Positions 35,457 through 61,099 of a stretch of DNA of 64,000 bases are shown here, piece after piece. Each line of letters opens with the position of its first letter. Within the stretch, counting starts at the first letter, position 1. The notes under the pieces were generated by a model. That model was given only the letters and a program-made list of their open reading frames with translations, searched no databases and was not told the DNA's origin. This DNA comes from an uncultured Planctomycetota bacterium (GTDB taxonomy: Bacteria; Planctomycetota; Planctomycetia; Isosphaerales; Isosphaeraceae): NCBI GenBank assembly GCA_963823665.1, contig CAWGMQ010000012.1, positions 64,001 to 128,000 of the forward strand, written 5' to 3'. Position numbers and translations under genes: made by a program.

Positions 35457-36073
35457 CTAATCCGCTGTTCTCGTTCCTTGCCAGCCGGTCTCCTGGGAAT
35501 CGCCCAATCGTTCGAGTCGGCGCTGCGCCGCTGGCGCACGCGGCGGACTGTACGCTCCGAGCAGCCGAGCTGCGCCGCCACCTCCTGGGCCGTGTAGCCC
35601 ATCAGGATTTGCTCGACGATGGGCCGGTCATCCGGCGACATGGCCTGGAACAACGTCACGACGGTGTCGTTGAGGATCGCCGCTTCGTCCGGCGTCGGGG
35701 TCCGATCAAGAAGGTAGGACGGGTCGTCATCGCCGCCCGGCCAGCCGACGTCGCGGCCGGCGTCGCGCCGGGCCGCGCGGAGATGCCTGAGCCGCTTGGC
35801 GCATTTACGCAACGTGATCATGGCCAGCACCGACCAGAGTTCGCTCCAGTCGTCCACCTGGAACTCCCCACGCCGGTTGCGAAGGAAGAAGCTCTTGCAG
35901 GCCGAGAGGACGACGAGCTCGACGTCCGCCCGGTCGCGCAGGCTCGCGTCGAACTGGCGGGCGGCCAGGGCGATCAGACGGCGAACGTACTGCTCGAACA
36001 ATGCCGTCTCGGCCGCGCCGTCACCTGCTCGCACTCGCCGCATTACCTCGTCGAACGTTGCGTCGAAATCCAT
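35457..36073 (-). CDS. ECF-type sigma factor (Sigma70_ECF-like, kinase-associated), with a probable frameshift near 35525
   Basis: RVRAGDGAAETALFEQYVRRLIALA, SACKSFF, LWSVLAMITLRK, GYTAQEVAAQLGCSERTVRR. A one-base shift gives ...RAQRRLERL...* at 35457; unshifted it ends at 35381. Confidence 0.85.
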
Positions 36074-36305
36074 GACTGGCTCATCCACATCGATCGTCGC
36101 CCAACCGGTCACGCACATCCATCCACCAAGAGGGACATTCTCGGCGACATCGCGAGTGATTTCAAGCATGGATCGGAGCCGATCTGCACAATCCTTGCGC
36201 CTGAGGCGATTCGCCAACTTTTTTGGCCGTCGCTGGAGACGTTTGGGGAGCTACCAGATAGGGGATGTCAGATTCTCAGGCCAATTCGACCAGGAGCCCG
36301 CAACA

Positions 36306-39300
36306 ATGACGCACCGCACTCGCGCCACGCGACCGAAGAGGCGGATGCCGACGAAGCGAGGGCCCTCCCTTGAGATACTGGAGCAGCGCGAGCTTCTCGC
36401 TTCCATGATTTATGACCTGGGCACACTCGGCGGAAGCACGAGTCAGGCCAACGCCATCAACGACCTCGGACAGGTAGTCGGTACTTCGCAAACAGCAACT
36501 GGATCGGAAGATGCGTTCATATGGAACAACAGCGTACAGGGAATACAGCCGCTCGCGGTCCCGTCTAGCTTCCTCGAAAGTACGGCCACGGGAATAAACA
36601 ACTCGGGCCAGGTGGCCGTGACTGTTTACACAAATACGCCCGGGGATGGGAACGCCTACCTGGATAGCTCGGGTATGTGGACCAACCTCGGCACCTTCCA
36701 GGGCGGAACGACCGCTGGGGCCAACGCAATCAACAACTCCGGACAGGTGGTCGGCGAAGCCGCTGTCGGAGCCGTCGCGCAGGCTTTCCTGTACAGCGGC
36801 GGTTCCTTGATGGGCCTCGGCACACTACCTGGCAGTATCTCCGTAGCCACAGGCATCAACAATAATGGACAGGTGGTCGGCGACTCGGGCACGAGCGCTT
36901 TCAGCGGTGGCACGATGAACACGCTGAAGTCGTTTCTCGCGACCGTCGCCAGGACTACGGCTTTGGGCATCAACGACTCCGGAGAGATTGTCGGACAAAC
37001 AGTCGGTCTAGGACCCAGCGGCGGGATCCAGAATGTTCTTCAAGAAGACGCCTTTCTCTACTCCGACGGGGGGATGACCAACCTCGGGCCCGGCGTTGCC
37101 GATGGCATCAACAACATGGGGCAGGTGGTCGGCACAAATGGTTCTTATCCGGTACTCTGGGAGAATGGAGATCCGATCGCCCTCGGTACGTTCCTGCCGC
37201 CGAATTCGGGTTGGACCCTGAGCACGGCGACGGCCATCAATAATGAGGGGCAGGTCGTCGGTGTCGGTACGATCAACGGTCAAACCCACGCGTACTTGCT
37301 CGACATCGACCAGACTTCCCAGGCGTTCACGGTCTCGAATTTGAACGATTCAGGCCCCGGATCGTTGCGCGACGCGATCGACCAGGCCAATGATTTTGTG
37401 TCATCTATTGGAAGAGCTCTCATCACGTTTTCGACCAGCATTGACTTTGGCACGATCTCGCTTCAATCTCCGCTGCCGGCGATCACTCGCGATGATGTCA
37501 CGATCGACGGCCCGCTCACCCTGGACGCCGTCTCGGGGGACGGTCTCGACCTCGACGCGCCTGGAGACATCGTCCAGGGCTTGACCATCACCGGGTTCAG
37601 CGGTTCGGGGATCGTTGTCAATGGTGGCGACGCACTCATCACGGGTAACACCATCACCGGCAACGGAGAATATGGCATCGACGTTGAGTCGTCGGGAAAC
37701 ACCATTGGCGCCGCCTCGACTCAGGGCATCGGTCCGTCCTTCGGAGGCAACCTGCTCTCCGGCAACGGCTACTCGGGAATCCTGGTCTTCAGTTCGGCCG
37801 GAAACGTCATTGAAGGCAACCTGATCGGCACCGACGCTACCGGCACGGTCGCGCAGGGCAACACCGACGGGGGAGTGTACCTTTGGAACGCCGCTGGCAA
37901 CACCATCGGGGGCACCTCCCCGGCGGCGAGAAATATCATCTCCGGCAACGCCTCCGCCGCCTACGCCGGAGTTAATGTCTACGAGTCGCTGGGCAACGTT
38001 GTTGAAGGCAATTATATCGGCACCGATATCAGCGGTTCCGTTGCGCTGGGCAACCTGAACGGCGTTGATATCTCCAACGGTTCCGCGGCAAACACGATCG
38101 GCGGCGCGACGAGCGGATCCGGCAATATGATCTCGGGTAATGCCGGCTACGGCGTCTTCATTACGGGGGTATCCGAGAACCTCGTCGCGGGGAACCTGAT
38201 CGGCACCGATGCCACGGGGAAGTTGGCCCTGGGCAACGCAAGCGGAGGAGTTTACATCACTGGTTCCGGCGGCAATACCGTCGGGGGCACGGCGGCGACA
38301 GCCAGGAACGTGATCGCGGCCAGCAGCGCAGCTCCTGCGGCGGACAATGATGGGCTCGGCGACGCGGGTGTCCTGATTTCCGGGTCAACCAGCAATGTCG
38401 TCGCCGGCAACTATATCGGCACCGATGTCACCGGTTCGGTCGCGCTTGGCAACTGGGTCGGCGTCGAGATCGATTCCGGATCCGGCACGGTCGGCGGCGC
38501 GAATATCGTCGCCGGGAACCTCATCTCGGGCAACAACTCGACCGGGTTGGTAATGGGTTCCAACGACGACCTCGCGCAGGGCAACTTGATTGGCACCGAT
38601 GCCACCGGTGAAAAAGGACTGGGCAACGCCTTGGACGGCATCGACGCTGGGGGCCAGTCCAACACGATCGGGGGCACGAGCGCAGGCGCAGGCAACATCG
38701 TCTCCGCCAATCAGGGTTATGGCATTGAGCTATCCGCGACAGACGATCTCGTCGCGGGGAATTTCATCGGCACCGATGCCACCGGCGAATCCGCGCTGGG
38801 CAACGCTGATGGCATCTTGGACTACGGCGTGTCCAACACGCTCGGGGGCACGGTTGCCGGCGCACGAAACATCATATCGGGGAATCTCAATTATGGCATA
38901 GAACTCGATGCGACTGACGAACTCGTCGAGGGGAATTACATCGGAACCGATGGCACGGGTGAAACCGCTGTGATGAATGGGTCAATAATTATTACAGATG
39001 TGAATAATAGTGTTAGCGTTATTGAAAATGATGGCACGGGAGTGTTTATCGGTTTCGCTTCAACGGACTGCACGGTCGGAGGTACGACAGCCGGCGCTCG
39101 CAATCTCATCTCGGGCAACATGATCGCCGGCGTGGTCATGGAGGAAGACTCGAGTGATCTGATCGAGGGGAATTACATCGGCACCGATGTTACTGGTACC
39201 GTGGCGCTGGGTAACGGTTCCTTCTCCTTCCCGAACTTCAACGAGTACGTCAACGATCCCCGGGAGCTGGACTTTGCCCACGTAGCGGGCGGTGTCGTTG

Positions 39301-42300
39301 TCTGCAGCGGCGTCACGTCGGACACGATCGGCGGCACGACCGCCGGCGCCGGCAATCTCATCTCGGGCAACGCCGGCGATGGCGTCAACATCTCCGATGG
39401 AGGCACTTTCTTTTCGGAACTTACGAGTCAGATCGTCGTCGAGGGCAACTTGATCGGCACCGATGCCAACGGTACGGCTCCCCTTCCAAATACAGGATCT
39501 GGCGTTGACATCGTGGATGGTTCCCAATCCAACACAATCGGCGGCACGACGTCAGGCGCCGGAAATATCATTGCGTTCAACATGCTTAACGGTGTCACAG
39601 TCGGTAACTCTTCCTTTTTCGATCCCACCCCTGACATGACCGCTGGCAACTCCATCCTGGAAAACTCGATCTTCTCCAACGGAGTACCCTCCGCCGATCA
39701 GGGACCCTTTGACATGCAGGGGATCGGGATCGACCTGGGCGGCAACGGCGTTACGCAAAATGGTTCAATGGGCGACGTCGGCCCGAATCTTTACCAGGTC
39801 TTCCCCGACCTGGGCAGCGTCTTCACTTCCGACGGAGTCACGACAATCACCGGGTCACTATACGCGAACCCCAACACCACGTACCGAATCGAGTTCTTCA
39901 GCAACCCCACGGCGGACCCATCGGGCTACGGCCAGGGTAAGACCTTCCTGATGGCTACCTACGTGACAACCGATTTTTCCGGTGAAGCGGACTTTGATCT
40001 TGATACACCAAGTGGGCTACCCATCGGGCAGTTCATCACGGCGACGGCGACCGACCCCGCCGGCAATACATCCGAGTTCTCGGCCGACGTCGAGAATTTT
40101 GGACTCGATATCACCGGCATCGCAGCCATCTCCCCCAATCCACGGAACACGCCGGTGTCCGCTGTGGACGTCACCCTCGACGAATACGTCGGCCAAAGTT
40201 TCACCATCGGGGCTTTGAGCCTGACCGACAACGGCGGGCCAAACCTTATCACCAGCGCGGTGACCATCAGTATTGTATCGGGCGCGGACTCGACGTACCA
40301 GATCGGCGGAATTGCCGGCTTGACCACCGCCGAGGGGACTTACAGTCTGACAGTCGACGCGACTCAAATTGACTCTTTTGGGGATTTCGGCAACGGTTCC
40401 GTGTCCACCTCATGGCTGATGGACACCACGCCGCCGACCAGCACCGTGAACGCGCTGCCTTCGACGACTACAGCCACGACTTTCACGGTCTCAGCCACCG
40501 GCAGCGACCCGACAGGATCGAACGGGAGCACGCCCTCGGGAATTGCGTCGTTCGCCATCTACACCTCGACCGACAACAGTGCTTTCACGCTCTGGACGAC
40601 CGTTACGCCCTCCAGTCCTTCGGCAATCTTCACTGGGCAGGCGGACCACACCTACGGCTTCTACAGCGTGGCGACCGATAACGCAGGGAACGTCCAGGCA
40701 ACTCCGGTCACTGCCCAGGCGACCGTTGAGATCCTCCCAGGCTACATCGTCAACGACTCGGGCGACGCGCCGCTCGACACAGCCATCGGTCCGGGCGAGA
40801 CCGCCACCGGCACGATCACCCTCCGTTCAGCGATCGAACAAGTCAACATCGACGGCGGCGGATCGATCACCTTTGCCAAGGCAATGACGATCTCGATCGG
40901 CTCGCAGCTCGAGCCCATCACGGCGAACGGAGTGACGATCAACGGCGGCACGGTCGGCTCGGTGATCCTGCAGGGTGGTCCTGGATACAGCGGCCTCGTG
41001 ATCCAGGGCGGCGGTGCCACGATTGAAAACCTGGTCGTCGACGACTTTCAAGTTCTGGGGATCAACACCCAGATCGCGGGGATCTACCTCGAATCGGCCA
41101 ACAATGTGATCGAATCCGATTACATTGGGACCGACGCCTCGGGCTCCCTGGCCGCCGGCAACTACAATGGGATCCTTGACGTAACCGGCAATAACACAAT
41201 CGAAAAGGATGTCATTTCCGGCAACACGAATACGGGGATCCTGCTCAACGGTGGTTCCGGCGATCAGGTGCACGGCAACCTGATTGGCACGGATGCCAGC
41301 GGTCTCAAACGCGTGGGCAACCCGGTCGGCGTGGCGATTCAAGGCGGTTCCGCGTCGAACACGATCGACGGCAACGTCATCTCGGGCAATAACACCTACG
41401 GCATCGACATCGACGGTACAGGGACGAGCCAGAACGTCGTCGTGAGTAATTGGATCGGCATTGAAGCCAACGGTGCCACAGCCCTGTCCAATGGAATCGG
41501 CATCACGATTTCCGGCGGTTCCACGGCGAACACGATCGGCGCCACGATCGCCGGTGTCGGCAACGTCATCTCGGGAAATGCCACCGTTGGCGTCGAAATC
41601 AGCGATCAAGGGACGAGCCAGAACCTCGTCGCGGGTAATTTCATCGGCACGGATACCAGCGGTCTCAAACGCCTGGGCAACCAGGTCGGCGTGGCGATTC
41701 AAAGCGGTTCCGCGTCGAACACAATTGGGGGCGCGAATGCGGGCGCTGCCAACGTCATTTCGGGGAACTCTGGCACCGGCATTCAGATTTCCGGCGCGTC
41801 GAGCAACCTCGTCGAGGGCAATTTCATCGGCACCGGCGTCGGGGGTGAAACCGCGGTGGGCAACCAAGTTGGCGTGGCGATCTCGAACGGTTCCGTGTCG
41901 AACTCGATCGGCGGCGCGATCAACGTCATCTCGGGCAATAGCAAGGACGGCGTCGACATCGACGGAACAGGAACGAGCCAGAACGTCGTCGTGTCGGCTT
42001 GGATCGGCATTGATCGCAAGGGTACCACAGCCCTGCCCAATGGAATCGGAGTCGCGGTATTCGGTGGCGCCACGGCGAACACAATTGGCGCCACGATCTC
42101 CGGCGTCGGCAACGTCATCTCGGGCAATGCCAGCGTTGGCGTCGAAATCAGCGATCAAGGGACGAGCCAGAACCTCGTCGCGGGTAATTTCATCGGCACG
42201 GACACCAGCGGTCTCAAACGCCTGGGCAACCAGGTCGGCGTGGCGATTCAAAGCGGTTCCGCGTCGAACACGATCGAAGGCAATGTCATCTCGGGCAATA

Positions 42301-45300
42301 CCACCTACGGCATCGACATCGACGGTAAAGGGACCAGCCAGAACGTCGTGGCGAGTAGTTGGATTGGCATTGAAGCCAACGGTACCACAGCCCTCTCCAA
42401 TGGTATCGGCATCGCGGTTTTCGGCGGTTCCACGGCGAACACGATCGGCGCCACGATTGCCGGCACCGGCAACGTCATCTCGGGAAATGCCACCGTTGGT
42501 ATCGAAATCAGCGATCAAGGGACGAGCCAGAACCTCGTTGCGGGCAACTACATCGGCACAGATACCGGCGGCGAGACCGCGCGGGGCAACCAAATTGGCG
42601 TGGCGATTCAAAGCGGTTCCGCGTCGAACACGATCGGCGGAACGATCACGGGCGCCCGCAACGTGATCTCGGGCAACAGCATGGACGGCATCGACATCGA
42701 CGGTACAGGGACGAGCCAGAACGTCGTCTCGGGTAATTTCATCGGCACTGGCGTCAACGGTACCACAGCCTCGACCAATCAAACCGGCATCGCGCTTACC
42801 GGCGGTTCCACGGCGAACACGATCGGCGGATCCGCCTCGGCCGCGCGCAACATCATTTCGGGTGATGCGTTCGCGGGCGTCTGGATCGATGGCCAGGGTA
42901 CGGATAGCAACGTCGTCGCGGGAAACTGGATCGGCGTCACGGTCAGCGGCGACACTGCCCTTCCCGATGGCAAATCCTCTGAATACGAGTACTTCGGGAC
43001 GATCTCCGGCGGCGTAGTGATCGACAGCGGCGCTTCAGGCAACCGCATCGGTACCGACGGCACCAGCGAGGACTCCGGCGAGGGAAACGTCATCTCGGGC
43101 AATGCCGACGACGGCATTGACATCTGGGGGAACGGGACGAGCGGAAACCTCGTCGCAGGCAATGAGATCGGCACCAATGCGGCGGGCACCATCTCCCTCG
43201 GAAATCTGGGAGAAGGCGTCTTCCTCGTGGGAGGCGCCACTGGCAACACGATTGGCGGAACAGCGGCGGGCGCCCGCAACGTCATCTCGGGCAATGGTGA
43301 CCACGGCGTTGTGATTGGCGAAGCATCGAGCAACCTCGTCGAGGGCAATTACATCGGCACCGATGTCAAGGGTTCCAACCCTCTGGGCAACCCGATCGGG
43401 GTCTTCATTTCGAGCAACTCCATGTCGAACACCATAGGCGGTGCGGTCGCCGGCGCCGGCAACGTGATCGCCTTCAACGCGGGTGCCGGGGTCATCGTGG
43501 GGAGCAGCAGCACGGATCAGGACTCCGGGAACGCTATTCTGGGGAACTCGATCTTCTCGAACACCGATCTCGGCATCGACCTGGGCGATAACGGCGTGAC
43601 GACCAATGGTGCCAGCGGCCACACTGGGCCCAACCTGTTCCAGGACTTCCCTGTGCTCACCTCCGTGGTGACGACTGACGGCATCACGACGATCATCGGG
43701 ACGCTCTCCGCGTCGGCCAGCACGACGTACCGGGTCGAGTTCTTCAGCAACCCCGCCGCCGATCCGTCGGGATACGGACAGGGGGAGAGCTATCTGACTT
43801 TTGCCAACGTGACGACCAATTCCAGCGGCACGGTGAACTTCTCCGTCCCAACGCCCAGCCCCGTGCCGGTCGGACAGTTCATCTCCGCGACGGCCACCGA
43901 CCCGGCCGGCAACACGTCCGAGTTCTCGGCCGACATCGTCGTGAGTTCTCCATCGCTCGTTCCCACCTCCATCACAGCCGTCTCCCCCAACCCGCGGAAC
44001 ACGGCTGTTTCCAGCGTGGACGTCACGTTCAGCGAGCCGGTCAATCTGAGTTCCTTCACCACCAGCACTCTCACGCTCACCGACGACGGCGGCACCAACT
44101 TAATAACCAGCGCGGTCTCCATCAGCCTAGTCTCCGGCGCGACGTATCAGATCGGCGGCTTGAACGGCCTGACCTCCGCCGAGGGGGCTTACACGCTGAC
44201 GGTGAACGCCGCCGATATCGACGACCAGTCCGGCAACCCGGGCAGCGGTTCGCTGTCGACCTCATGGCTGATGGACACGACGCCACCGACAAGCACCGTT
44301 AATGCCCTGCCGGCGCAGACAACCTCCACGAGCTTCACCGTGTCAGCAACCAGCAGCGACCCAACCGGGTCGAACGGCAGCACACCCTCAGGCGTCGCTT
44401 CAATCGCACTCTACGACTCCAAGGACGGCGGGTCCTACACACAATTCGCCAGCGTAACACCAGCAAGTCCCTCCGCCCTCTTCACCGGCCAGGCCGGTTC
44501 TCACCTACGGCTTCTACAGCATCGCAACCGACAACGCCGGCAACGTCCAGGCCACGCCCACCGCCCCCCAGCAAACCGCGCAGATCATCTCTCCTGCATC
44601 CGTGACTTCGATTGCCGCGGTCATGCCGAACCCTCGAAACACGCCAGTCTCGACCATCGCTGTCACGTTTAGCATCCCGGTCAACCCGAGCACGTTCGGC
44701 TCGAGCACGCTCACTCTGACCGACAACGGCAACCCGGTCGCGATCACCGGCGCCGTCTCTCTTAGCCTTGTCTCGGGCAGCACGTATGACATCAACGGCC
44801 TCGCTGGGCTGACCACCGCCGAAGGAACCTACAGCCTCACCGTGAACGCGGCCAGCATTTCCGACTCCTACGGCAACCCGGGCACCGGCTCGCTGTCCAC
44901 CTCCTGGCTGATGGACACGACCCGACCGACGAGTACCGTGAGCGCACTGCCGGCGCAGACAACCTCCACGAGCTTCACCGTGTCGGCGACCAGCAGCGAC
45001 CCAACCGGGTCGAACGGCAGCACACCGTCAGGGGTCGCTTCGATCGCACTCTACGACTCCAAGGACGGCGGGTCCTACACACAATTCGCCAGCGTAACAC
45101 CAGCAAGTCCCTCCGCCCTCTTCACCGGCCAGGCCGGTCACACCTACGGCTTCTACAGCATCGCAACCGACAACGCCGGCAACGTCCAGGCCACGCCCAC
45201 CGCCCCCCAGCAAACCGCGCAGATCATCTCTCCTGCATCCGTGACTTCGATTGCCGCGGTCATGCCGAACCCTCGAAACACGCCAGTCTCGACCATCGCT

Positions 45301-47433
45301 GTCACGTTTAGCATCCCGGTCAACCCGAGCACGTTCGGCTCGAGCACGCTCACTCTGACCGACAACGGCAACCCGGTCGCGATCACCGGCGCCGTCTCTC
45401 TTAGCCTTGTCTCGGGCAGCACGTATGACATCAACGGCCTCGCTGGGCTGACCACCGCCGAAGGAACCTACAGCCTCACCGTGAACGCGGCCAGCATTTC
45501 CGACTCCTACGGCAACCCGGGCACCGGCTCGCTGTCCACCTCCTGGCTGATGGACACGACCCGACCGACGAGTACCGTGAGCGCACTGCCGGCGCAGACA
45601 ACCTCCACGAGCTTCACCGTGTCGGCGACCAGCAGCGACCCAACCGGGTCGAACGGCAGCACACCGTCAGGGGTCGCTTCGATCGCACTCTACGACTCCA
45701 AGGACGGCGGGTCCTACACACAATTCGCCAGCGTAACACCAGCAAGTCCCTCCGCCCTCTTCACCGGCCAGGCCGGTCACACCTACGGCTTCTACAGCAT
45801 CGCAACCGACAACGCCGGCAATGTCCAGGCCACGCCCACCGCCCCCCAGCAAACCGCGCAGATCATCTCTCCTGCATCCGTGACTTCGATCGCCGCGGTC
45901 TCACCCAATCCCCGGAACACGGCCGTGTCCAGCATCGACGTCACCTTCAGCATCCCGATCAATCTGAGCACATTCACCGACTCGAGCGTCAACCTCACCG
46001 ATAACGGCGGCGCGAACCTCGTCACGAACGCGGTCACCTTCGCGGCCGTCTCTGGGTCGACCTATCAAATCAACGGCCTCACCGGGCTGACCAAGAACAA
46101 CGGCAATTACACGCTGACTGTGAACGCCGCCGCGATCCTCGACACATACGGCAACCCCGGCTCGGGAACCGCGTCGACGTCGTGGCTGATGGACACAGCC
46201 CCCCCCACAAGCAAGGTCAACCCGCTCGCGGCACGCGGCACCAGCCTCACGTTCCCTGTCTCGGTCTCTGGCTCCGACGGCGGCTCACCCGCCTCAGGCG
46301 TGAGGTCCTACACGATCTACTCAAGCACCAACGGCGGAGCCTGGTCGCTCTGGACCACCGTTTCGGCCGCCAACTCAACAGCCAACTTCACCGGCCAGAG
46401 CAACACGACCTACGCCTTCTACAGCACGGCGACAGACAACGCCGGAAATACCCAGGCCTACAGCCCGCAAATTGAGGCCAGCACGTATCTGCCCGACCTG
46501 ACCCCGACCCTCACGACGGTCGACAGTACGACCGGCACCAACCCGAGCACCGTCAACACCACGACCGGTACGTTCACGCTCAATCTGACCGGCAATGATC
46601 CCGGCGGTGGTATCGTGACCTACTTCGAGGTCTACGTCTCAGTCGATTCCGGCGCCTATAGGATGGTCAACAGCGCGGCGATCCCAGCCAGCCCGCCCAA
46701 CAGCCAGGGGCTCACATCCGCGACAATCCCTTACCAGGGCCTGACCGACGGAAACAGCCATACCTACCAGTTCTACAGCATCGGCATCGACAGCGCGGGC
46801 AACGTGCAGTCGGCGCCTTCGACCCCGAACCTGAGCCTGACCGAGACCTTCGCCCAGCCCTCGGCGCTCCAGGTGACGAACCTCATCGTCGAAGACGGCG
46901 CCGTCGAGCGTTCCTACATCCGCTACCTGCAAGTCGACTTCAACGAATCCGACACCCAGTCCGGCAGCGAGCTCACCCAGATCGTCAATTCACTCAAGAC
47001 CACAGCACCCGAGATCCAGCTCTACCAGTACGACTTGAACGACGACGAATCGAGCAAGACGCCCGTCTCGCTCGCCAACGTCAACGTCTCGCTGATTGAC
47101 CACGCCATCGAGCTCGACTTCGGCGCGAACGGCCTGGGCGGCAGCCCCAACACGACAACCGCCGATGGCTACTACGAGCTCGATATCAAGCTCCCGAGCG
47201 GATCGACCGCCGTGCACCACTTCTACCGCCTGCTCGGCGACGTCACGGGAGACGGCACGGTCGACAGCAACGACCTGAACGAAATCGCCGCCGAAATCAA
47301 TCTGTCCAACCCGCCAGGCCTTGCACCCCTGGGCGCCGACGTGAACGGCGACGGCACCGTATCCGCCCTCGACCTCACCCTAGCAACCCGCGCGAAGGGC
47401 CACAAGCTGAAGTCCGGTCTTTCCCTGGGATGA
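36306..47433 (+). CDS. Giant (~3700 aa) secreted adhesin-like protein: LEPR-XLL leader, HAF repeats, parallel beta-helix repeats, Ig/FN3-like repeats and a C-terminal dockerin-like motif; frameshift at ~44500
   Basis: ATG 36306 follows AGGAG; LEILEQRELLA; DLGTLGG...A.AIN..GQVVG; dozens of GN.IGTD..G repeats; GDVTGDGTVDSNDL...ADVNGDGTVSALDL. The extra base at ~44500 is clear from comparison with the intact repeat copies. Confidence 0.9.
41260..42830 (+). repeat. Nucleotide-level internal repeats of beta-helix units
   Basis: For example GTCGAAATCAGCGATCAAGGGACGAGCCAGAACCTCGTCGCGGGTAATTTCATCGGCACGGA at ~41592 and ~42141, with a variant at ~42502. Confidence 0.85.
44231..45900 (+). repeat. Tandem 639-bp (213 aa) repeat, ~2.6 copies
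   Basis: GTGACTTCGAT recurs at 44602, 45241 and 45880. 44602-45240 and 45241-45879 are nearly identical. Confidence 0.95.
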
Positions 47434-53173: not shown

Positions 53174-53370
53174 ATGGCGATCGCTCGCGCCATCTCGTCG
53201 ACCCCTCGATCACTCGCTGGTATCACTGCATCACCCGATGCGTTCGACGCGCGTGCCTGCTCGGTGAAGAACCACAAAGACGTGAAGAATGGCTCGAGCA
53301 CCGACTTGAAGAACGTTCGGAAATCTTCGCCATCTCACTCTGCGGTTTCTCAGTCATAGACAGCCGTTGA
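53174..53370 (+). pseudogene. Truncated Y1 (IS200-like / RAYT) transposase N-terminus
   Basis: GGAG RBS, then MAIARA/HLVDPSITRWYHCITRCVRRACLLGEE...REEWLEHRLEE.SEIFAISLCGFSVID*. It has one frameshift and stops just before the expected HUH (NHLH) motif. Confidence 0.8.
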
Positions 53371-53637: not shown

Positions 53638-54228
53638 ATGGCAGAGCCAGCAGCCGAGCCCGTCGGTTGGGAAAGGGCACTCATGGCAGCGGAAAAGGTC
53701 AAGGATCGCCTGCGCAGGGCAACCCGCGCGCTCGACTCGGCCGGCGTGCCTTACGCGGTGGTCGGTGGCAACGCCGTCGCCGAGTGGGTCGCCCGGGTTG
53801 ACGAGGACGCCGTCCGCAACACGCGCGATGTCGATCTCCTGATCCGGCGTCCTGACTTTGCCGCGGCAAGAACCTGTCTTGAAGCAGTCGGGTTTGTTTA
53901 TCACCAGCTCCTCGACATCGATACGTTCATCGATGGGCGGCAAGGCAAGCCGAGCGGTCGAATCCATCTCCTCTATGCCGGTGAAAAAGCTCGAAGAGAC
54001 GACGATCACAGTTTGCCCGAAATCGACGAATCGGAGCGAGCCGTCGAATTCCAGGTCGCCAATCTCGAAGCGCTCGTGCGAATGAATTTGACCTCATATC
54101 GATTAAAGGACAAACTTCACATCCTCGATTTGATCGGTGTCGGCCTGATCGATGCGACTTGGCCGGCCCGATTTCCGCCTCTGCTCGGGGATCGTTTGCA
54201 GCAATTACTCGATGATCCGAACGGCTGA
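53638..54228 (+). CDS. Pol-beta superfamily nucleotidyltransferase (AbiEii-like / NTP_transf_5-like)
   Basis: PYAVVGGNAV...RNTRDVDLLI and the C-terminal R.KD..HILDL motif. Confidence 0.8.
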   Translation: MAEPAAEPVGWERALMAAEKVKDRLRRATRALDSAGVPYAVVGGNAVAEWVARVDEDAVRNTRDVDLLIRRPDFAAARTCLEAVGFVYHQLLDIDTFIDGRQGKPSGRIHLLYAGEKARRDDDHSLPEIDESERAVEFQVANLEALVRMNLTSYRLKDKLHILDLIGVGLIDATWPARFPPLLGDRLQQLLDDPNG

Positions 54229-54302: not shown

Positions 54303-56222
54303 TTAGCCGACCGAATCCGTCGCTCTGGTGGTGACCACTTTGTTCAAACGAGCCGTCAACTTCTCGGGCACCTGAAAAAAGTGCTTGCCTTCACGATAGA
54401 TTTCGACGTCCTTCAGCCACTGAAATGTTCTTGATGAAAGCCTCCAGCAGAAAACCAATCCCGCCCCAGTCTCCAGGTCCAGTCGGACTACGTTGAAAGC
54501 CTTTTCGTAGTGCTCCGCAGCGTACAATGCGCCGGCGGAAATATGACAGTATTCGCGGCCGGCGAAAAAGGACGCCTGAACGTGCGGGTCGTGCTCGTGC
54601 CCGCGAAGAACGAAGTCAAAATACGGGAACGTCTTTCGCTGGTAACGCATGTCGTCGAGGATATACCAGTCGGTCTCTGGAGGATGATGCACGAGGGCAA
54701 GGCGGATCTGTGCCTCCTGTAATCCCTCCACTGCGTCATCAATCTGTGGGACGCCCAGAACCAGTCGCCCACGGTCCGCGTCCGAACTGGAGCGCCAAGC
54801 GGAATTGAGCCCAGCGATTCCGACGTTGACACCCTTGATTGCTTGAATCGTGATAAACGAGCCGTATCGATTGAGTAGCGGTTGTCCAAACCGTCCGCAT
54901 CGCGCCGCAAATGTCTGGAAGTTCTCCAGCCTACGAAAAACTCGCGCACGGTCGTCCTCGTAATTATGCGATTTCAGATACTCCATTGTCGCCTGATACG
55001 AGGTGAGGAACGCAAGAGCGGCAGTCTCTTCCCGTTGGTACCGTTCAACTAGCGGACGATACACGTCGTGATTGCCTGGTACCACCATGATCGGCGCATC
55101 GGGCTCGGGTAGGCACGCATGCAGTTGCTCGAGAAACATTAAAGCAATATCATATTCCTTGTCGTCACCCGAAAACGCGACATCTCCAGTCAGGAAAACG
55201 AAGTCCGGACTGAGATCCTCCTCACCGAGTAACTTGGGTAAGTCTGCGATGAACGACTCCTTCACCTTGTCTCCCGCCCAGTCGTTCTGCCGCACTTCCG
55301 AGCCGTCTGCCTTGAATTGAAGATCTGAAATGTGAAGCCACGTTAAGGTCTGGCCTGAAACACGACGGGGCGATTTTCCGGACAACGAAATCACAGCAGG
55401 TGCATTGACATTCACTTTCAAGACATTGGGCTTGCGAAGGAAGCTGTCGACCGCAACCGACGGGACCTCCGAAGCATGAAGATCCTGCTTTTGGGTCGAG
55501 ATTGAGTCCGCTGCGCTGGCCCCCGAGCTTTGAACCGTCAAGATTCCCGCCCAACGCGTCAGGGCATCGCGAAAACGGCCTAACTCTGGACGCACGTTCA
55601 ACGCCTGCAGCACGGGCAACGCGGGCGAGTCGCCGTTCGCAACCGCACGCGCCAGATCCCGGAAAAGTCCCGAACGCAAGCAAATCGTCATCGCGTCGCG
55701 GCATTCGTAAGCTCCGCCGAACAACTGTTGAGGCAACGCATCCCAGGCCTGGCGGACTGCGCGGATGGACGGCTGCTCGGCGTCCAGACGCCGCAGAAAC
55801 GGAAGGACGGACTGTCCTTGGTACTGGGCACAGTGCAAGGCTCCCGGCAGATCAGCCATCTCCGGGAGAGGCGCGGCGTAGAGTATGGCTTCCAACGAAT
55901 CGAGCGTCCGCGTCGCGGCGAGGCATTCGTCCAGCTCCTCCGCCGCTTGAGCGCGAACCTCGTCGGAGTGGCTCGGATCGAGCAATAGCAGGCTTACATC
56001 GAGCGCCTCCTCACGCCATACCGCCAGTTCCAACCGCTGCCGAACAGCCGTGGGATCGCAGTCTTCCAGGAACTCGAGATCTGCCCCTTCCCCGATCAGC
56101 AGGTGATACTCGTCGTGTCGCCGCGGAATCAGTTCATCGGGCTCGTCGACGTCCAGGGAGAAGAGTTGGTCGCCATGCACGATTAACGCCACACCGGCCC
56201 GGCCGGAAATAACCGCATTCAT
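54303..56222 (-). CDS. Unknown N-terminal domain fused to a calcineurin-like metallophosphoesterase
   Basis: LTWLHISDLQF, FLTGDVAFSG, VPGNHDV, GLNSAW, LVHHP, LRGHEH. The N-terminal ~230 aa is mostly helical and unassigned. Confidence 0.88.
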   Translation of the reverse strand: MNAVISGRAGVALIVHGDQLFSLDVDEPDELIPRRHDEYHLLIGEGADLEFLEDCDPTAVRQRLELAVWREEALDVSLLLLDPSHSDEVRAQAAEELDECLAATRTLDSLEAILYAAPLPEMADLPGALHCAQYQGQSVLPFLRRLDAEQPSIRAVRQAWDALPQQLFGGAYECRDAMTICLRSGLFRDLARAVANGDSPALPVLQALNVRPELGRFRDALTRWAGILTVQSSGASAADSISTQKQDLHASEVPSVAVDSFLRKPNVLKVNVNAPAVISLSGKSPRRVSGQTLTWLHISDLQFKADGSEVRQNDWAGDKVKESFIADLPKLLGEEDLSPDFVFLTGDVAFSGDDKEYDIALMFLEQLHACLPEPDAPIMVVPGNHDVYRPLVERYQREETAALAFLTSYQATMEYLKSHNYEDDRARVFRRLENFQTFAARCGRFGQPLLNRYGSFITIQAIKGVNVGIAGLNSAWRSSSDADRGRLVLGVPQIDDAVEGLQEAQIRLALVHHPPETDWYILDDMRYQRKTFPYFDFVLRGHEHDPHVQASFFAGREYCHISAGALYAAEHYEKAFNVVRLDLETGAGLVFCWRLSSRTFQWLKDVEIYREGKHFFQVPEKLTARLNKVVTTRATDSVG

Positions 56223-57073
56223 TTGCGCACCTCGAATGCGATGTCGGCCCGGCCAAGCTCAACTTCCACAGCCTGTCGAACGCTTTTCTTCGGCTGGCGC
56301 CCCTTGAGTCGAACGATTACCCGCGCGAACATGCGCAATGTCAGCGAGCCAAAGATATGGACCTCTACGAATTCGTCGGTTGCGGGCGCACCGGGCTTGA
56401 GCAGCACTTTCGGAAATTCGGCGGCCGTTGTGTCGCTTTTTAGTCGGTTCGCCAGCTTTGCCGCCGAGATTCGATGCCGATCATTCCAGGCAGCGCGATA
56501 ACCGCGAGGTAACTCCGGAGCGTCCCATATCTTGATATCGTGTTTTTTCATGAACATCACGCTGTTCTCATCGAATACCGATGCGCGGTGAGCGATCATC
56601 TCCTCCTTCATCACGACGGAACAGTTGCCATAGTTGGTCAACCCTTCTCCATCCAGTGTCAAGGCGGCAAAACGAATCTCCGATTTGACACGGTCGCCAA
56701 AAAGGGCCGTGTCGGCCAAGCTCCGTAGAACATCCCAGTTGTCGCCGGCGGGGATACGGAGTTGAGTCAACTGATAGTAGGTAGCGTACAACTCTTTGTC
56801 GCTCCTGGCCAGCCGAGCGACCTCCGCAATCGGTCGAGCAATAACGGCTTCCGATCCTTGAACGGCGGTTTCAAATTCCTCAAGAATCTGTTGTACTCCG
56901 CGAGCGATGGCGTTCTGGCGGGCGCCTTGGTACCGAATCTCAAGAGCTTGAAGTTCTTCTGGCTCTTCCGCGAGAAGCACATTCGGAAACCGCGATGGCC
57001 GCGCGCAATGGGGGCAGGCGGTCCAATCCAGCGGAACCGCAAACTGGCAATACGGGCACGGAGCGCTCTGCAT
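56219..57073 (-). CDS. Zinc-ribbon protein with a putative enzymatic (ADP-ribosyltransferase-like?) domain
   Basis: CPYC-x10-CPHC; RFAALTL..NYG.C...RASVFDENS...DEFVEVHIFG. Its stop overlaps the next start (ATGA at 56222-56219). Confidence 0.8.
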   Translation of the reverse strand: MQSAPCPYCQFAVPLDWTACPHCARPSRFPNVLLAEEPEELQALEIRYQGARQNAIARGVQQILEEFETAVQGSEAVIARPIAEVARLARSDKELYATYYQLTQLRIPAGDNWDVLRSLADTALFGDRVKSEIRFAALTLDGEGLTNYGNCSVVMKEEMIAHRASVFDENSVMFMKKHDIKIWDAPELPRGYRAAWNDRHRISAAKLANRLKSDTTAAEFPKVLLKPGAPATDEFVEVHIFGSLTLRMFARVIVRLKGRQPKKSVRQAVEVELGRADIAFEVRK

Positions 57074-57361: not shown

Positions 57362-58399
57362 ATGCGCACCGTCCGAATGACAAGCTTCTTCGCTTTCGGC
57401 CTGATCCTGCTCTCAACCAAAGGCCCCAGCGCGGCCGAGCCCAGCGATCGTCCCGCTGATAGCAAGAAATACCTGATCATCCACGCCGACGACGGCGGCA
57501 TGTGCCACTCCGTGAACCGAGCGACCGTCGAGGCATTGGAGAAAGGAATCGTCTCCTCGTGCAGCATCATGATCCCCTGCCCTTGGGTCACCGAGTTCGC
57601 CAACTATGCGAAGGCTCACCCGGAAAAAGACTATGGCGTTCATCTGACACTGAACTCCGAGTGGTCGGTCTACCGCTGGGGCCCGGTCGCCGGCCGGAAC
57701 GTGGTTCCGAGCCTGGTCGACGCCGACGGCTACCTCTACCGCGACGTCCCCAGCGTGGCCAAGAACGCCAAAGCCGACGAGGTCGAGATCGAGCTGACAG
57801 CGCAGATCGAGCGAGCCAAGGCCCTCGGCATCCCGCTCAGCCACATCGATACGCACATGGGCGCCGTCGTGAGCCGGCCCGACCTGGTCGAGATCTATGT
57901 TAAGCTCGGGCTGAAGTACGACCTGCCCATGCTCTTCCTGCGCAAGATTGAAGGCCCGGTCGTCGAGGCGTATCCGGCGTTGCGCGAGCGCGGCAAAGAG
58001 CTGCTCGCAGCCCTCGACGCGCGGCGGTTTCCCGTTCTGGATAACCTGGCCCAATTCTACGGCGGCAATTCGCACGACCAGCGCGTCGAGAGCTATTTGA
58101 AAACGCTACGAACTCTACCAACAGGCACGAGCCAGCTCATCATCCACTGCGGTGTCTTGGACGACGAACTCCGCGCTGTGACCAACAGCGCCTCGAATCG
58201 CGACGGCGACCGCCGTATCTTCACGGATCCCGCGATCGCCGCCGAGATCAAGCGCTTGGAAATCGAGGTGATCTCATGGAAACAGTTCCGAGCCATGACC
58301 GAAGGAGCGCCAGCAGCCAAAGGCGACCGCACCGGCACAAAGGAACAGCCCATGACACCGTCCTCAACGACCTACTCGTTAAGGATGCCCGCGCTGTAG
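57362..58399 (+). CDS. YdjC/ChbG-family carbohydrate deacetylase, secreted
   Basis: Signal peptide; [34 protein letters not shown]. Confidence 0.9.
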
Positions 58400-60184
58400 A
58401 GGGTGCTCTCGAAGTACGAGCGATACTCATATTCGCTCATTTGCTGCACATAAACCCTGGTGCCGTTCGGGAGCACCTCGATCGACTGCCCGGCCGGATC
58501 GCTCGCCGAGCCCGAGACCCCCGGACGTGAAGGCCAGGTTGCCGTTGGGGAGCAGCTCCGAGCTCCCGAGGAAGGCCGAGTAGTTGCCCATGTCGGCATT
58601 CACCACCAGCGTCGCCGTCATGTTCTGCTCGTTGAGGACCCATTCCTGCCCGCGGCTATCCGCCTTCGGGTTGTACGCGTGGCGGGTGTTCCCGTCATCG
58701 AAGACCAGCATGGTGTTGTCGTTGATGTAGCGCACGTCGTGCTGGTGGGAGAACCACGGGTTGGGGCGTGTTGGCGATGGCCTTGAAATTGCCGCCCGGC
58801 CCCCAGCTTCCAGACGATGTGGCCGTTGCCGGTCCCGTTGGCGTAATCGATCTTGATCACCCAGTCCTGGGCGCGCAGCGAGACGATCAGGTCCCCGTCC
58901 TCGGGCGACCAGCTCACGGAGTTGGCGTGCAGCCAGTCGGTCGGGTCCCGGTCATCCGTGCCGAGGCGGTTGGTGTTGAGCCAGTGGAAGGAGTTCCAGA
59001 CCCACGACACCTGGAAGTTCTGATTCAGGACGAGGACCATGTCGCCGTTGAACTTGGTGGGCCTCCCCTTGTAATTGACGATCTTCGGCGTGCTGGCGAT
59101 GACGACCGTGTCGCCGTTGGGCAGGAGCTTGGCCTCGTGGTCGAAGTCGAGGATCTGCGGCTGGTGCATCGCGGCCAGCTCGGCGTTGACGGCATGGATG
59201 TTCGTCTGGCGCAGGGTGTCGCCGGCCAGGTCGACCTGCCGCAACGTGTTATAGCCCGCGGCGACGCCGACGACGTTGCCGCCCAGCATCATCACCGTGC
59301 CGCCCGGCTCGAGGTTCTGGGCATAGCCGGGGAAGTTGTTGGCCACCGAGTCATAGTACCAGATGACGTTGCCGCTCAAGTCGGTCGCCACGGTGTTGAC
59401 CGCGTTCTTGGCGGTCGTCTTGTTGACCCCGGCGTGGAAGATCATGCTCTGGCTCAGGTCCGTCCCGGCGGCCGGCGGCTGCACCACGGTGAAGGTGGGG
59501 AAATTGCAGGTTGGCCGGCAGGCTCCCGGTGGTGAACGCGAGCGGGGCGGAGACCGTCCCGTCATCCAGGACGTCCCGCATGAGGTAGGTCGTGTTGGGC
59601 AGCATGCCGGCCACGATGAAGTTGGTGCTCTCGCCCGGGACGATGGGCAGCGGGGAGGTATTCTGCCAGGACAGGGTGGGGCCCTGCTCGGCGAACTGGA
59701 CGTACATCGAGGCGCCGGGCGAGGGAGGCGCGCTGTACAGGGCGACCAGGGGGTTGGCCATGGGGCTGACCACGGCGCTGTCCCCCACAACACGCGTCTG
59801 CGCCGTATACGTCGCGGTCGCGGATTCGCTCTTCCGGGCGCCGAATCCGTACTTGACGTCCACCTGGATCTCGTAGGTCCCCTGCTGCATGGGGTTCCAG
59901 GTGAAGCTGTTGCTGAGGCTGAAGTCGCTCACGACCTGGAGGGCACCGCCCTGCTGCTCGACGCTGAACTGGTAGACGGCGTTTTGCCCGTCGCCGCTGG
60001 ACGTCGCCGTCCAGATGACCGGCGATCCGACGTAGGGGACAGCCGGGGCGATGTCGGTCAGGGAGACGGACAGGAGGCAGCGATCCTCCAGTGGCGTGCA
60101 GTCGGGCCGATGCCGCCGGGGGCGACGATTCAGGGCGCGCCGGGCCGCGGCTCGCGTGCAAAATAACATGAGAGGTCGCCACAT
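58372..60184 (-). CDS. Arylsulfotransferase (ASST)-family secreted protein with an LEPR-XLL leader, with ~3 frameshifts (~59510, ~58790, ~58520)
   Basis: [84 protein letters not shown]. Confidence 0.85.
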
Positions 60185-60699
60185 GATAAGAACTCCGGAT
60201 AGAAAATAATCGCAGCGCGAGCCCTGCCTCCGGGGCCTCAACTGCAAAGTTTTGTTAGTGCGCTGCAATCCTTGGGGGCGCACGGGGCGAGGACTGTGAC
60301 CGACTAACGCCGCGCGTCGCTGTTGCACGGCTGGGTCGGTCGCATGGGCCAGGGGGTGTGGGCGCGTGTAGCTTCGGGGCTGGTTACAGCCCACAACACC
60401 CGTCGGTGCCGATCGTCGTCTCTCCTCGCCAGTCGGGCCGATGGGTCGATCTAAGCCCGTCTATTAGAAACACACCGTGACCAGATCGCAACAAAGAAGA
60501 CAGAAAAAAGTGCGCAAAGCGCCATCCATCGCTAATCCGTACAGATTCGTGAATATATGTAAAGTGGCAAACTGCGAGCGCACACGATGAACATTGCCCG
60601 GTACGGAGACGAGCGCCGGGCTCATGGTCAATAGAATTGCATTTATGAAATTATTTGGATGTTAATAGTTTTTATATATTGAAATGACTAAATATACTT

Positions 60700-60864
60700 G
60701 TACGGTCATGCGATTCAGGTGGGTGGCGCTAGCGTCACCGGTATTCCGGTGTAGCAGGCACACTCCGTGTGCCGTCCGCCGAAGTTGCCGGTGAGTGGCA
60801 CTGGCCAGGTCAGTCCTCCATGCTCGGGCGAATCGCCGTCCCGGAATCGCGAAAAGCCATTTAG
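60700..60864 (+). repeat. Second copy of the ~170 bp composite repeat with the family B GTAG REP
   Basis: Same orientation as 51290-51460; GTAGCAGGCACACTCCGTGTGCCGTCCGCCGAAGTTGC starts at 60751. Confidence 0.85.
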
Positions 60865-60879
60865 CGACGCGTCTGCAAT

Positions 60880-60995
60880 CGCTTCGCACGATCCGGACAG
60901 GCGTCAGTCAGCTCTCATCCATTGCGGCGTCCTCGCCGACGAGCTCTGCGTGATGACAGGTCACAGCTTTCGCGGAGGCCGAAACTCTGTCTATG
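60880..60995 (+). pseudogene. Degenerate fragment of a YdjC-like gene
   Basis: GVSQL/IHCGVLADELCVMT aligns with [20 protein letters not shown] at ~58123-58185. Confidence 0.6.
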
Positions 60996-61099
60996 GTCTG
61001 ACCAGGGAAGGCTTCGAGCGGAAGACCGAGCCTCTGGCTTGGGCGAAGGAAGCGGGCTGATATTATTCCTCCAGGCTCACCCGCACGCCTGACGCTCCC

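Follow-up and report, generated by a model that had tools for sequence, protein, structure and literature searches.

In a 64,000-nucleotide stretch of DNA from an uncultured Planctomycetota bacterium of the Isosphaeraceae (assembly GCA_963823665.1, contig CAWGMQ010000012.1, positions 64,001 to 128,000; here called the window), we have found two minus-strand genes that pair an ADP-ribosyltransferase (ART)-fold protein with a partner made of a constant N-terminal domain (NTD) and an exchangeable C-terminal tail, and across homologous loci this tail has been replaced serially, in many cases by what appear to be copies of host genes. Gene 1 (56219..57073, 284 aa) encodes a zinc-ribbon protein assigned to the SopF/OspC/DUF3626 branch of the ART fold, and gene 2 (54303..56222, 639 aa) encodes the NTD, a linker and a phosphoesterase tail. 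The two frames overlap in an ATGA stop/start (56219..56222), consistent with translational coupling. An earlier reading of the letters without database searches (the sequence-only reading) proposed here a conflict system of an ART-like protein and an adaptor-phosphoesterase; the two genes, their overlap and every motif quoted for them are indeed present, and the serial replacement of the tail, the main feature of the system, lay beyond its reach. The comparative pattern is well supported, and the mechanism that we infer from it is that of a guarded executor with a sensor or decoy tail.

The ART-like fold suggested for gene 1 is borne out by structure searches. An AlphaFold2 model built from 116 homologs (pLDDT 94) matches SopF best (7dn9; Z 14.4, rmsd 3.8, 230 residues aligned; Foldseek E 7e-7), followed by OspC3 (Z 10.7), Tpt1 (10.2), CopC (9.5) and DarT (9.0), and the top 11 rows of the structure search are all ART-fold entries. 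The model places gene 1 in the split beta-sheet ART fold. Homologs number 456 at E ≤0.001 among 5786 candidates. The kinship with DUF3626, also part of the sequence-only reading, stands as a remote one: hhalign of the gene 1 profile with one DUF3626 protein gives a probability of 26 and E 7e-4, pairing RFAAL with RYGGL, YGNC with FGSC and DEFVEVHIFG with DDYVEAQIHG, DUF3626 ranks eighth in an Atlas search with gene 1 (score 0.86), and SopF, the top fold match, contains DUF3626 according to the accessible text of PMC6682159. Pfam DUF3626 (PF12294) gives no gene 1 match at E ≤1 and is absent among the 25 of 38 Pfam families listed for the 116 homologs; gene 1 has no Pfam match above cut-off, and PDB sequence searches with it return nothing significant.

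Two elements of gene 1 are nearly invariant. The CxxC-x10-CxxC of the N-terminal zinc ribbon (57005..57058, minus strand) comprises C6, C9, C20 and C23, conserved in 96-100% of the 116 homologs, with a sub-threshold DZR match. The predicted catalytic motif E237-V-H239 (56357..56365, minus strand) is part of DEFVEVHIFG and lies on a predicted late strand (237-241); E237 is conserved in 100% and H239 in 99% of the homologs, and E237 aligns with the E of EAQ in the DUF3626 protein. Over 91 loci, some of them duplicates, the third position of the ExH motif is H in 88 matches and Q in 3. The spacing is identical to that of OspC3 and CopC, where E326/H328 and E325/H327 are the essential E/H pair (PMC9239266, accessible text), and E237/H239 are probably the equivalents of that pair, judged by motif and not by superposition. 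The first strand, AVIAR, which contains the quoted VIAR, ends in an invariant Arg and has no His; FAALTL, NYG and RASVFDENS complete the motifs quoted for gene 1. Relatives of the ART were not confirmed in IMG/VR or among annotated phages, nor did a JGI metagenome scan run with a close-clade alignment yield any; one was found in plasmids.

The constant partner of this ART is the NTD of gene 2 (aa 1-232; 55527..56222, minus strand), not the phosphoesterase. The NTD lies directly downstream of the ART in 75 of 76 genome loci found via the ART, with the partner start at most 13 nt from the ART stop in 70 of the 75; at the remaining locus the contig stops 137 nt past the ART. A reciprocal search with the NTD, over 401 genomes from a single class, recovered 26 loci in 25 genomes (16 loci new, 10 shared with the ART-found set), all with the ART upstream, although very distant orphan NTDs could be missed because the search profile was built from ART-linked NTDs. 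The co-occurrence of the two genes expected by the sequence-only reading thus holds for ART and NTD. Pairwise identities of the two are correlated (Spearman 0.83 over 63 loci, kin not being independent). The NTD is single-copy in the window's genome and in 24 of the 25 positive genomes of the other class; genome G124 carries two distinct ART-NTD-TPR copies (L154 and L177). Clustered at 50% identity, the NTD falls into 1706 groups, and in each of the 150 listed it is N-terminal. At seven loci (L042, L056, L074, L075, L169, L174 and L028) the ART or the NTD is split by a frameshift, sequencing error and decay not being told apart as its cause.

The domain of about 230 aa that had been left unassigned in gene 2 keeps that status: the NTD matches no family. 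Its AlphaFold2 model (pLDDT 96.6) consists of a small beta domain and a helical domain. No Pfam family is common to more than 2 of 72 members, PADLOC matches 0 of the 72, the window's NTD has no NCBIfam match, the PDB sequence search gives nothing significant and the Atlas no usable match. The best fold match has Z 5.6, with no Foldseek match at E 0.001, which is not in itself evidence of a new fold. For a macrodomain, NADAR or any other eraser the searches (72 NTDs in Pfam and PADLOC; fold searches) gave no match. Scans of the 116 ART homologs against PADLOC and NCBIfam gave one marginal match in one and 0 of 116 in the other; with no PADLOC or NCBIfam family for either ART or NTD, the pair is not already named there, as had been supposed.

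Co-folding of ART, NTD and NAD predicts that the two proteins bind, again as foreseen. The score is 0.68, against 0.00 for the best of three controls; 116 of the 157 solved pairs and 2 of the 215 mismatched ones attain this mark, counts that apply only roughly, the present co-fold having used its own alignments and NAD. Contacts agree between runs by at least 76%, with a partner pLDDT of at least 85. The predicted interface (ART 79-108, 148 and 258-271) falls on conserved residues, R80, Y96, T98, Y100 and Y148 of the ART and L78, D82 and R90 of the NTD. As a coupled gene pair whose products are predicted from the models to bind, the system has the arrangement of a type II toxin-antitoxin module.

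What follows the NTD is variable. In the window, a linker (55347..55526) leads to a calcineurin-like phosphoesterase (aa about 293-639; 54303..55346), both on the minus strand; Pfam Metallophos covers aa 296-546 (E 5e-12), and WLHISDLQF, GNHD and GLNSAW are the expected motifs of this subtype. Tails diverge soon after the conserved W224, the closest relatives sharing W-[AG]-[GEK]-[IL]-L-[ST]-V-Q and diverging after it. Among the 76 loci, 45 tails are of the TPR class (a charged linker, a helical module, then TPRs), 18 carry another domain (4 labelled by eye), 8 are short and 5 are cut or broken and unscorable. The ART keeps an unbroken frame with its motif in 42/45 TPR, 17/18 other-domain and 7/8 short-tail loci. 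The TPR array is the commonest and most widespread tail, and from this spread it is probably ancestral.

The best 150 NTD cluster representatives, a set in which clustering at 50% identity favours unusual tails, comprise 47 of TPR type and 103 others. A family scan of 80 of these 103 and three close relatives revealed sigma factors and single sigma regions, sigma-54 activators, receivers, helix-turn-helix proteins of the Fis, LuxR and MarR types, CHAT, TIR, kinase, FHA, HEAT, RecA, bactofilin, phasin, WcaJ-type transferases and ornithine monooxygenase. Some are partial, such as sigma region 2 or 4 alone or a cut sigma-54 ATPase. An NTD tree of 81 rows made in quick mode, from which 4 broken or partial loci were omitted and in which many branches are open, requires a minimum of 12 switches between TPR and non-TPR tails and of 23 switches of tail type over 80 labelled rows, counts that carry no direction. 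The same is seen at fixed genomic positions, with 16 loci after prfA and a histidine-phosphatase-like gene and 6 after a thiC-like gene (names assigned by reading of the sequences); between shared flanks stand TPR, Fis, short, CHAT, phasin, ECF and monooxygenase tails. At the thiC-adjacent site, comparison of L077 and L051 with L136 and L134 gives a dS of about 2.1 for the ART and about 2.8 for the NTD (about 49% aa), and the native monooxygenase genes of those two genomes differ by a dS of 0.43; by these values the pair appears to evolve far faster than its host there, or to have been replaced in place.

The phosphoesterase is one of many exchangeable tails, and its proposed role as the defining eraser or effector is not supported by the comparison. 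Gene 2 and its four closest relatives have four different tails. Metallophos occurs among the 10 proteins compared only in P0002, the window's gene 2, and in P0126, which has the same NTD-phosphoesterase fusion and is 64% identical overall; the three other close relatives end in a sigma factor, a receiver-containing tail and a small hypothetical one. Among the best 5 families per protein, Metallophos is found in 0 of 75 genome-locus partner genes. The first metal motif reads D-L-Q in the window and D-V-H in P0126, and matches of the tail to DS-8, DS-9 and PDC-S60 are partial and far below threshold (107 against a cut-off of 790; 52 against 420). In keeping with the sequence-only reading, neither gene holds an NTPase recognizable in Pfam or the defence-family libraries. 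In the window's genome this phosphoesterase subtype occurs twice more, each time at the N-terminus: ahead of a SIR2-like region, with a transposase as neighbour (L081, G000:C4), and ahead of TPRs, in surroundings that resemble BREX/restriction loci (L082, G000:C10), these labels being assigned by eye.

Many tails are closest to a gene of their own host. When 15 tails were searched against their own genome and other genomes, the best non-self match was a stand-alone gene of the same genome in 9, at 57-92% identity. Own-genome and best other identities are 67 and 62% for a Fis tail, 69 and 53% for each of two phasin tails, 83 and 74% for Hsp70, 75 and 70% for an ECF sigma factor, 57 and 39% for a WcaJ-type transferase, 92 and 88% for the monooxygenase, 70 and 41% for DUF1571 and 89 and 83% for ribosomal protein S2. 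Two further tails point weakly in the same direction (44 vs 35% and 42 vs 37%), and for the remaining four no close donor was seen. Compared with each other, the two phasin tails are only 35-39% alike, each being nearer to the phasin of its own host. S2 is captured in an acidobacterial metagenome-assembled genome and on a plasmid of a Rhizobium leguminosarum isolate, 9B (NZ_CP050098.1), where the ART is followed by an NTD, missing from the annotation, that is fused in frame to a rhizobial S2. This second S2 tail is identical to S. meliloti S2 at 209/251 positions and to the acidobacterial tail at 110/219, a nearness that indicates an independent capture. By such comparisons, S2 and phasin each appear to have been captured twice independently.

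The annotation of the R. leguminosarum locus (447222-449598, L205), derived from RefSeq, lists 'rpsB' only and not the NTD half of the fusion, and further fusions may be hidden under housekeeping names. Both S2 tails (L167:2287-3126 and L205:10589-11347) are altered in the same short basic motif after GVHFGH. On the 130 kb conjugative plasmid pAtS4b (NC_011991.1; L207:2447-3400), rpsB is present as an additional, stand-alone copy that has a long C-terminal extension; it lies beside a TPR gene and a toxin-antitoxin pair, with no ART or NTD within the 5.7 kb examined.

DNA similarity between tail and native gene is restricted to coding sequence. For S2 it begins at the native start codon (88% identity), and for the monooxygenase about ten codons in; the S2 join may reflect a dedicated capture route rather than chance duplication. 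The captured copies appear, from substitution patterns, to be under purifying selection: over 8 pairs, dN/dS between tail and native gene ranges from 0.06 to 0.40, and for 6 of them a simulation of neutral decay puts the probability of a stop-free frame at no more than 0.04. Of 26 non-TPR tails, 18 are long in-frame domains, vs about 15% estimated for random junctions (binomial 7e-10, the loci not being independent). At positions invariant in the native genes of other genomes, the S2 tail has 9 changes vs 0 in its own native gene (of 149), the Fis tail 7 vs 0 (of 38), including the helix-turn-helix, and the Hsp70 tail 60 vs 23 (of 371).

Two trivial origins of the fusions were considered and rejected. 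Assembly chimeras are ruled out by the 6-36% base differences, mostly synonymous, between tails and natives, and by the presence of one fusion on a complete isolate plasmid. Among the sparse contigs from sequencing runs, one 427-nt piece spans the gene 1/gene 2 overlap with zero differences, and none covers the NTD-tail junction. A cassette that inserts ahead of random genes is ruled out by tails that vary between conserved flanks, the native gene being kept elsewhere.

We favour the reading that the pair is a two-component guard system in which the NTD restrains the ART and the tail serves as sensor or decoy, and hold it with a confidence a little short of even. The NTD would keep the ART inactive in the manner of an antitoxin. 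The tail would be the sensor, TPRs binding a phage product and captured host proteins acting as decoys for phage factors that hit ribosomes, RNA polymerase, chaperones, nucleoid proteins or defence enzymes. When the tail is bound, modified or degraded, the ART would be freed to ADP-ribosylate a cellular target, and infection would be stopped; the window's phosphoesterase would be a decoy, or an effector hijacked from another defence protein family. A guarded executor is suggested by the toxin-fold enzyme, the coupled partner without evident catalytic residues, the hypervariable tail and the patchy presence (1 of 121 genomes of the window's family; 25 of 401 genomes of another class). Decoys fit better than working enzymes because the copies keep their fold and are partly eroded. 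Repeated acquisition of host-protein copies, as in the sensor of an integrated-decoy receptor, is what the donor search shows, with 9 of the 15 tails clear, 2 weak and 4 without donor. The more specific claim of a bacterial integrated-decoy immunity, with an NTD-gated ART executor, a tail that is a hot spot for host-gene capture and a catalogue of captured tails that would list the host proteins under attack by the phages of uncultured soil bacteria, is more tentative, possible rather than probable.

Several observations weigh against this reading. The tails without close donor are the CHAT tail (36% own vs 41% other), a Fis-type helix-turn-helix, a FAD-type tail and the window's own phosphoesterase, whose paralogs in the same genome are 32-33% identical, with no match at E 1e-30 in 120 genomes of the family. 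The control genomes are few and of relatedness to the host that is not known, so an own-genome best match indicates a lineage-local origin and not copying within the cell. Site erosion is not seen in the ECF (15 vs 11 of 95) or monooxygenase (7 vs 6 of 165) tails. Phasin, WcaJ-type transferase, nonribosomal peptide synthetase and ornithine monooxygenase are not obvious phage targets, and the short tails at 8 loci, 7 of them with an unbroken ART, imply a dispensable sensor. The co-fold output does not discriminate between inhibition and activation of the ART by the NTD, nor does it tell whether the NAD site is closed; in CopC, binding of the partner activates the enzyme (PMC9239266, accessible text). 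Defence-island association of the pair is weak. PADLOC matches 13 of 150 neighbour open reading frames, 6 of them generic (kinase, radical-SAM-like or small-nuclease-like), with no background control; this set was drawn from 191 mechanically chosen frames at 56 loci, the 16 prfA loci being excluded. These 16 loci and the 6 beside the thiC-like gene are housekeeping positions, not defence islands. A third conserved component was also sought and rejected, the neighbour clusters containing no conserved third gene.

The foremost alternative, which we consider unlikely, is that the NTD activates the ART and the tail is an address label that delivers it into the native complex of the captured protein, such as the ribosome, RNA polymerase, Fis dimer, granule or filament. 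The ankyrin repeats of OspC and CopC, which recruit substrate, offer an analogy, many tails derive from proteins that form oligomers or belong to complexes, TPR arrays serve for binding and the tails preserve their folds. The closest folds are cofactor-bound protein ARTs, calmodulin being the activating cofactor of CopC (PMC9239266, accessible text). Delivery of this kind would need an extra, unseen switch against self-poisoning, and a single ART family would have to be of use against targets that have little in common; pairs with short tails nevertheless persist.

It is rather improbable that the ART is a writer that modifies the NTD or linker and so turns on the tail as the true effector, be it phosphoesterase, TIR, CHAT protease, kinase or sigma factor, although this comes closest to the sequence-only reading. 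Many tails are regulators or conflict effectors, and the NTD has near-invariant residues that could be acceptors (S6, D82, R90 and Q150). Variable effectors recur in conflict systems, and the phosphoesterases of DS-8 and DS-9 are required for defence (accessible text of PMC7159879 and bioRxiv 2025.01.08.631726, respectively). Several tails, however, are partial or altered at conserved sites, the D-L-Q of the window's included, and S2, phasin and bactofilin would be odd outputs, the more so with the native gene kept.

A selfish addiction module, in which the ART is the toxin, the NTD the antitoxin and the tail free to vary, is ranked after it and is likewise doubtful. Captured copies would then be kept for no other reason than that a tail which is in frame and folded makes the antitoxin more stable, or that a second copy brings a small advantage. 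Housekeeping locations, short-tail forms, the weak defence context and relaxed constraint on the tail all fit; the excess of long in-frame domains, the low odds of neutral stop-free survival and the repeated capture of the same genes do not. That the phosphoesterase strips the mark or product of a toxic ART is very improbable: its one support is that both domains are present together in the window and in the protein of P0126, and the phosphoesterase is missing from the families listed for the 75 locus partners and the first metal His is a Gln in the window's tail.

The sequence-only reading called both genes A/T-rich, which holds for each gene as a whole (GC 56.6% in gene 1 and 57.7% in gene 2, vs 62.3% in the window) and not for the NTD part of gene 2, where the first 230 codons have 63.0% GC, vs 54.5-55.7% for linker and phosphoesterase. 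GC at third codon positions is 62-65% in the pair vs 71-84% in the other genes measured, with the exception of the convergent neighbour (53638..54228, plus strand; 64.5%). The nucleotidyltransferase identity of this neighbour is supported below the Pfam cut-off only (NTP_transf_5, E 5e-6); it lies outside the system and is absent from the recurrent neighbour clusters listed for homologous loci. The dead Y1 transposase noted nearby is a remnant at about 53174-53370 (53174..53370, plus strand), broken as described by a frameshift and a stop; it has no NCBIfam match, and by a motif it looks like a Y1 transposase. A promoter and terminator scan of the pair gave chance level. Elsewhere in the window, a very large repeat-rich surface-type protein (35796-47433) is split near 44600 into two open reading frames, and about 210 aa of it are duplicated internally. 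Near 60930 there is a short, degenerate repeat of what looks like the end of the YdjC-like gene (IIHCGVLD...; 57362-58399 and 60767-61060), and its recurrence suggests a local duplication around 58400-60400.

To our knowledge, the known bacterial guard systems each watch one fixed host or defence complex. If the decoy reading is true, the captured tails (S2, Hsp70, RecA, Fis, sigma factors, sigma-54 activators, phasin, bactofilin and defence phosphoesterases) name candidate phage targets by sequence. Whether or not it is, a widespread SopF/OspC-branch ART at work within bacteria, a 232-aa domain without family and the repeated, selected capture of genes such as rpsB need explanation. The R. 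leguminosarum isolate plasmid makes the system testable in a host that is cultured and non-pathogenic.

From sequence comparison, the pair appears to fall outside DarTG, OspC, DS-8 and any PADLOC or NCBIfam family tested, and the ART-NTD system is apparently undescribed so far. No description of it was found in the literature covered, which excluded supplements (e.g. those of PMC7159879 and the DefensePredictor preprint) and most subscription papers; the main text of PMC9503650 mentions neither SopF nor OspC. SopF, OspC3 and CopC share with gene 1 the best-matching folds, the E-x-H/Q motif on strand 5 and a partner-bound enzyme. Gene 1 is, however, only 7-15% identical to them, has an N-terminal zinc ribbon and no Pfam DUF3626 match, has its partner encoded next door, and occurs in bacteria of soil and water, where no secretion context was evident. 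The ExH motif of the OspC/CopC riboxanases is present in gene 1, whereas an ankyrin match and the first-strand His of their H-F-E triad are not. DarTG likewise consists of two coupled genes with an ART-fold first gene and, as predicted here, a direct complex; in our pair the tail is hypervariable, and the NTD and listed tail families are without a macrodomain or NADAR eraser.

DS-8, DS-9 and PDC-S60 have the phosphoesterase subtype of the window's tail, but the pair lacks a NACHT or HAD partner, and its phosphoesterase is C-terminal and exchangeable. Ternary NTPase conflict systems with EAD adaptors have an overlapping palette of effectors, calcineurin-like and TIR included, and decoy interactions are proposed for some of their variable effectors (PMC7159879, accessible text). 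They differ in having a conserved NTPase, vWA or third gene, all missing here, where the NTD is mostly single-copy per genome, and no ART-centred system is described in the accessible text of that paper. Neither there nor in the accessible text of PMC12409349, a review of bacterial guard and decoy sensing, is an ART-NTD pair or the capture of host-gene copies described. The integrated-decoy pairs of plant NLRs, RGA4/RGA5 and RRS1/RPS4, have no homology to the genes studied here, in which there is no NLR or STAND ATPase, the captured domain replaces a TPR tail and the decoy action is what we infer. What the plant pairs seem to share with them is a paired sensor and executor, with copies of host proteins on the sensor (PMC9528084, accessible text). 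If our reading is true, the ART-NTD pair would be a counterpart, in bacteria, of the integrated decoys of plants.

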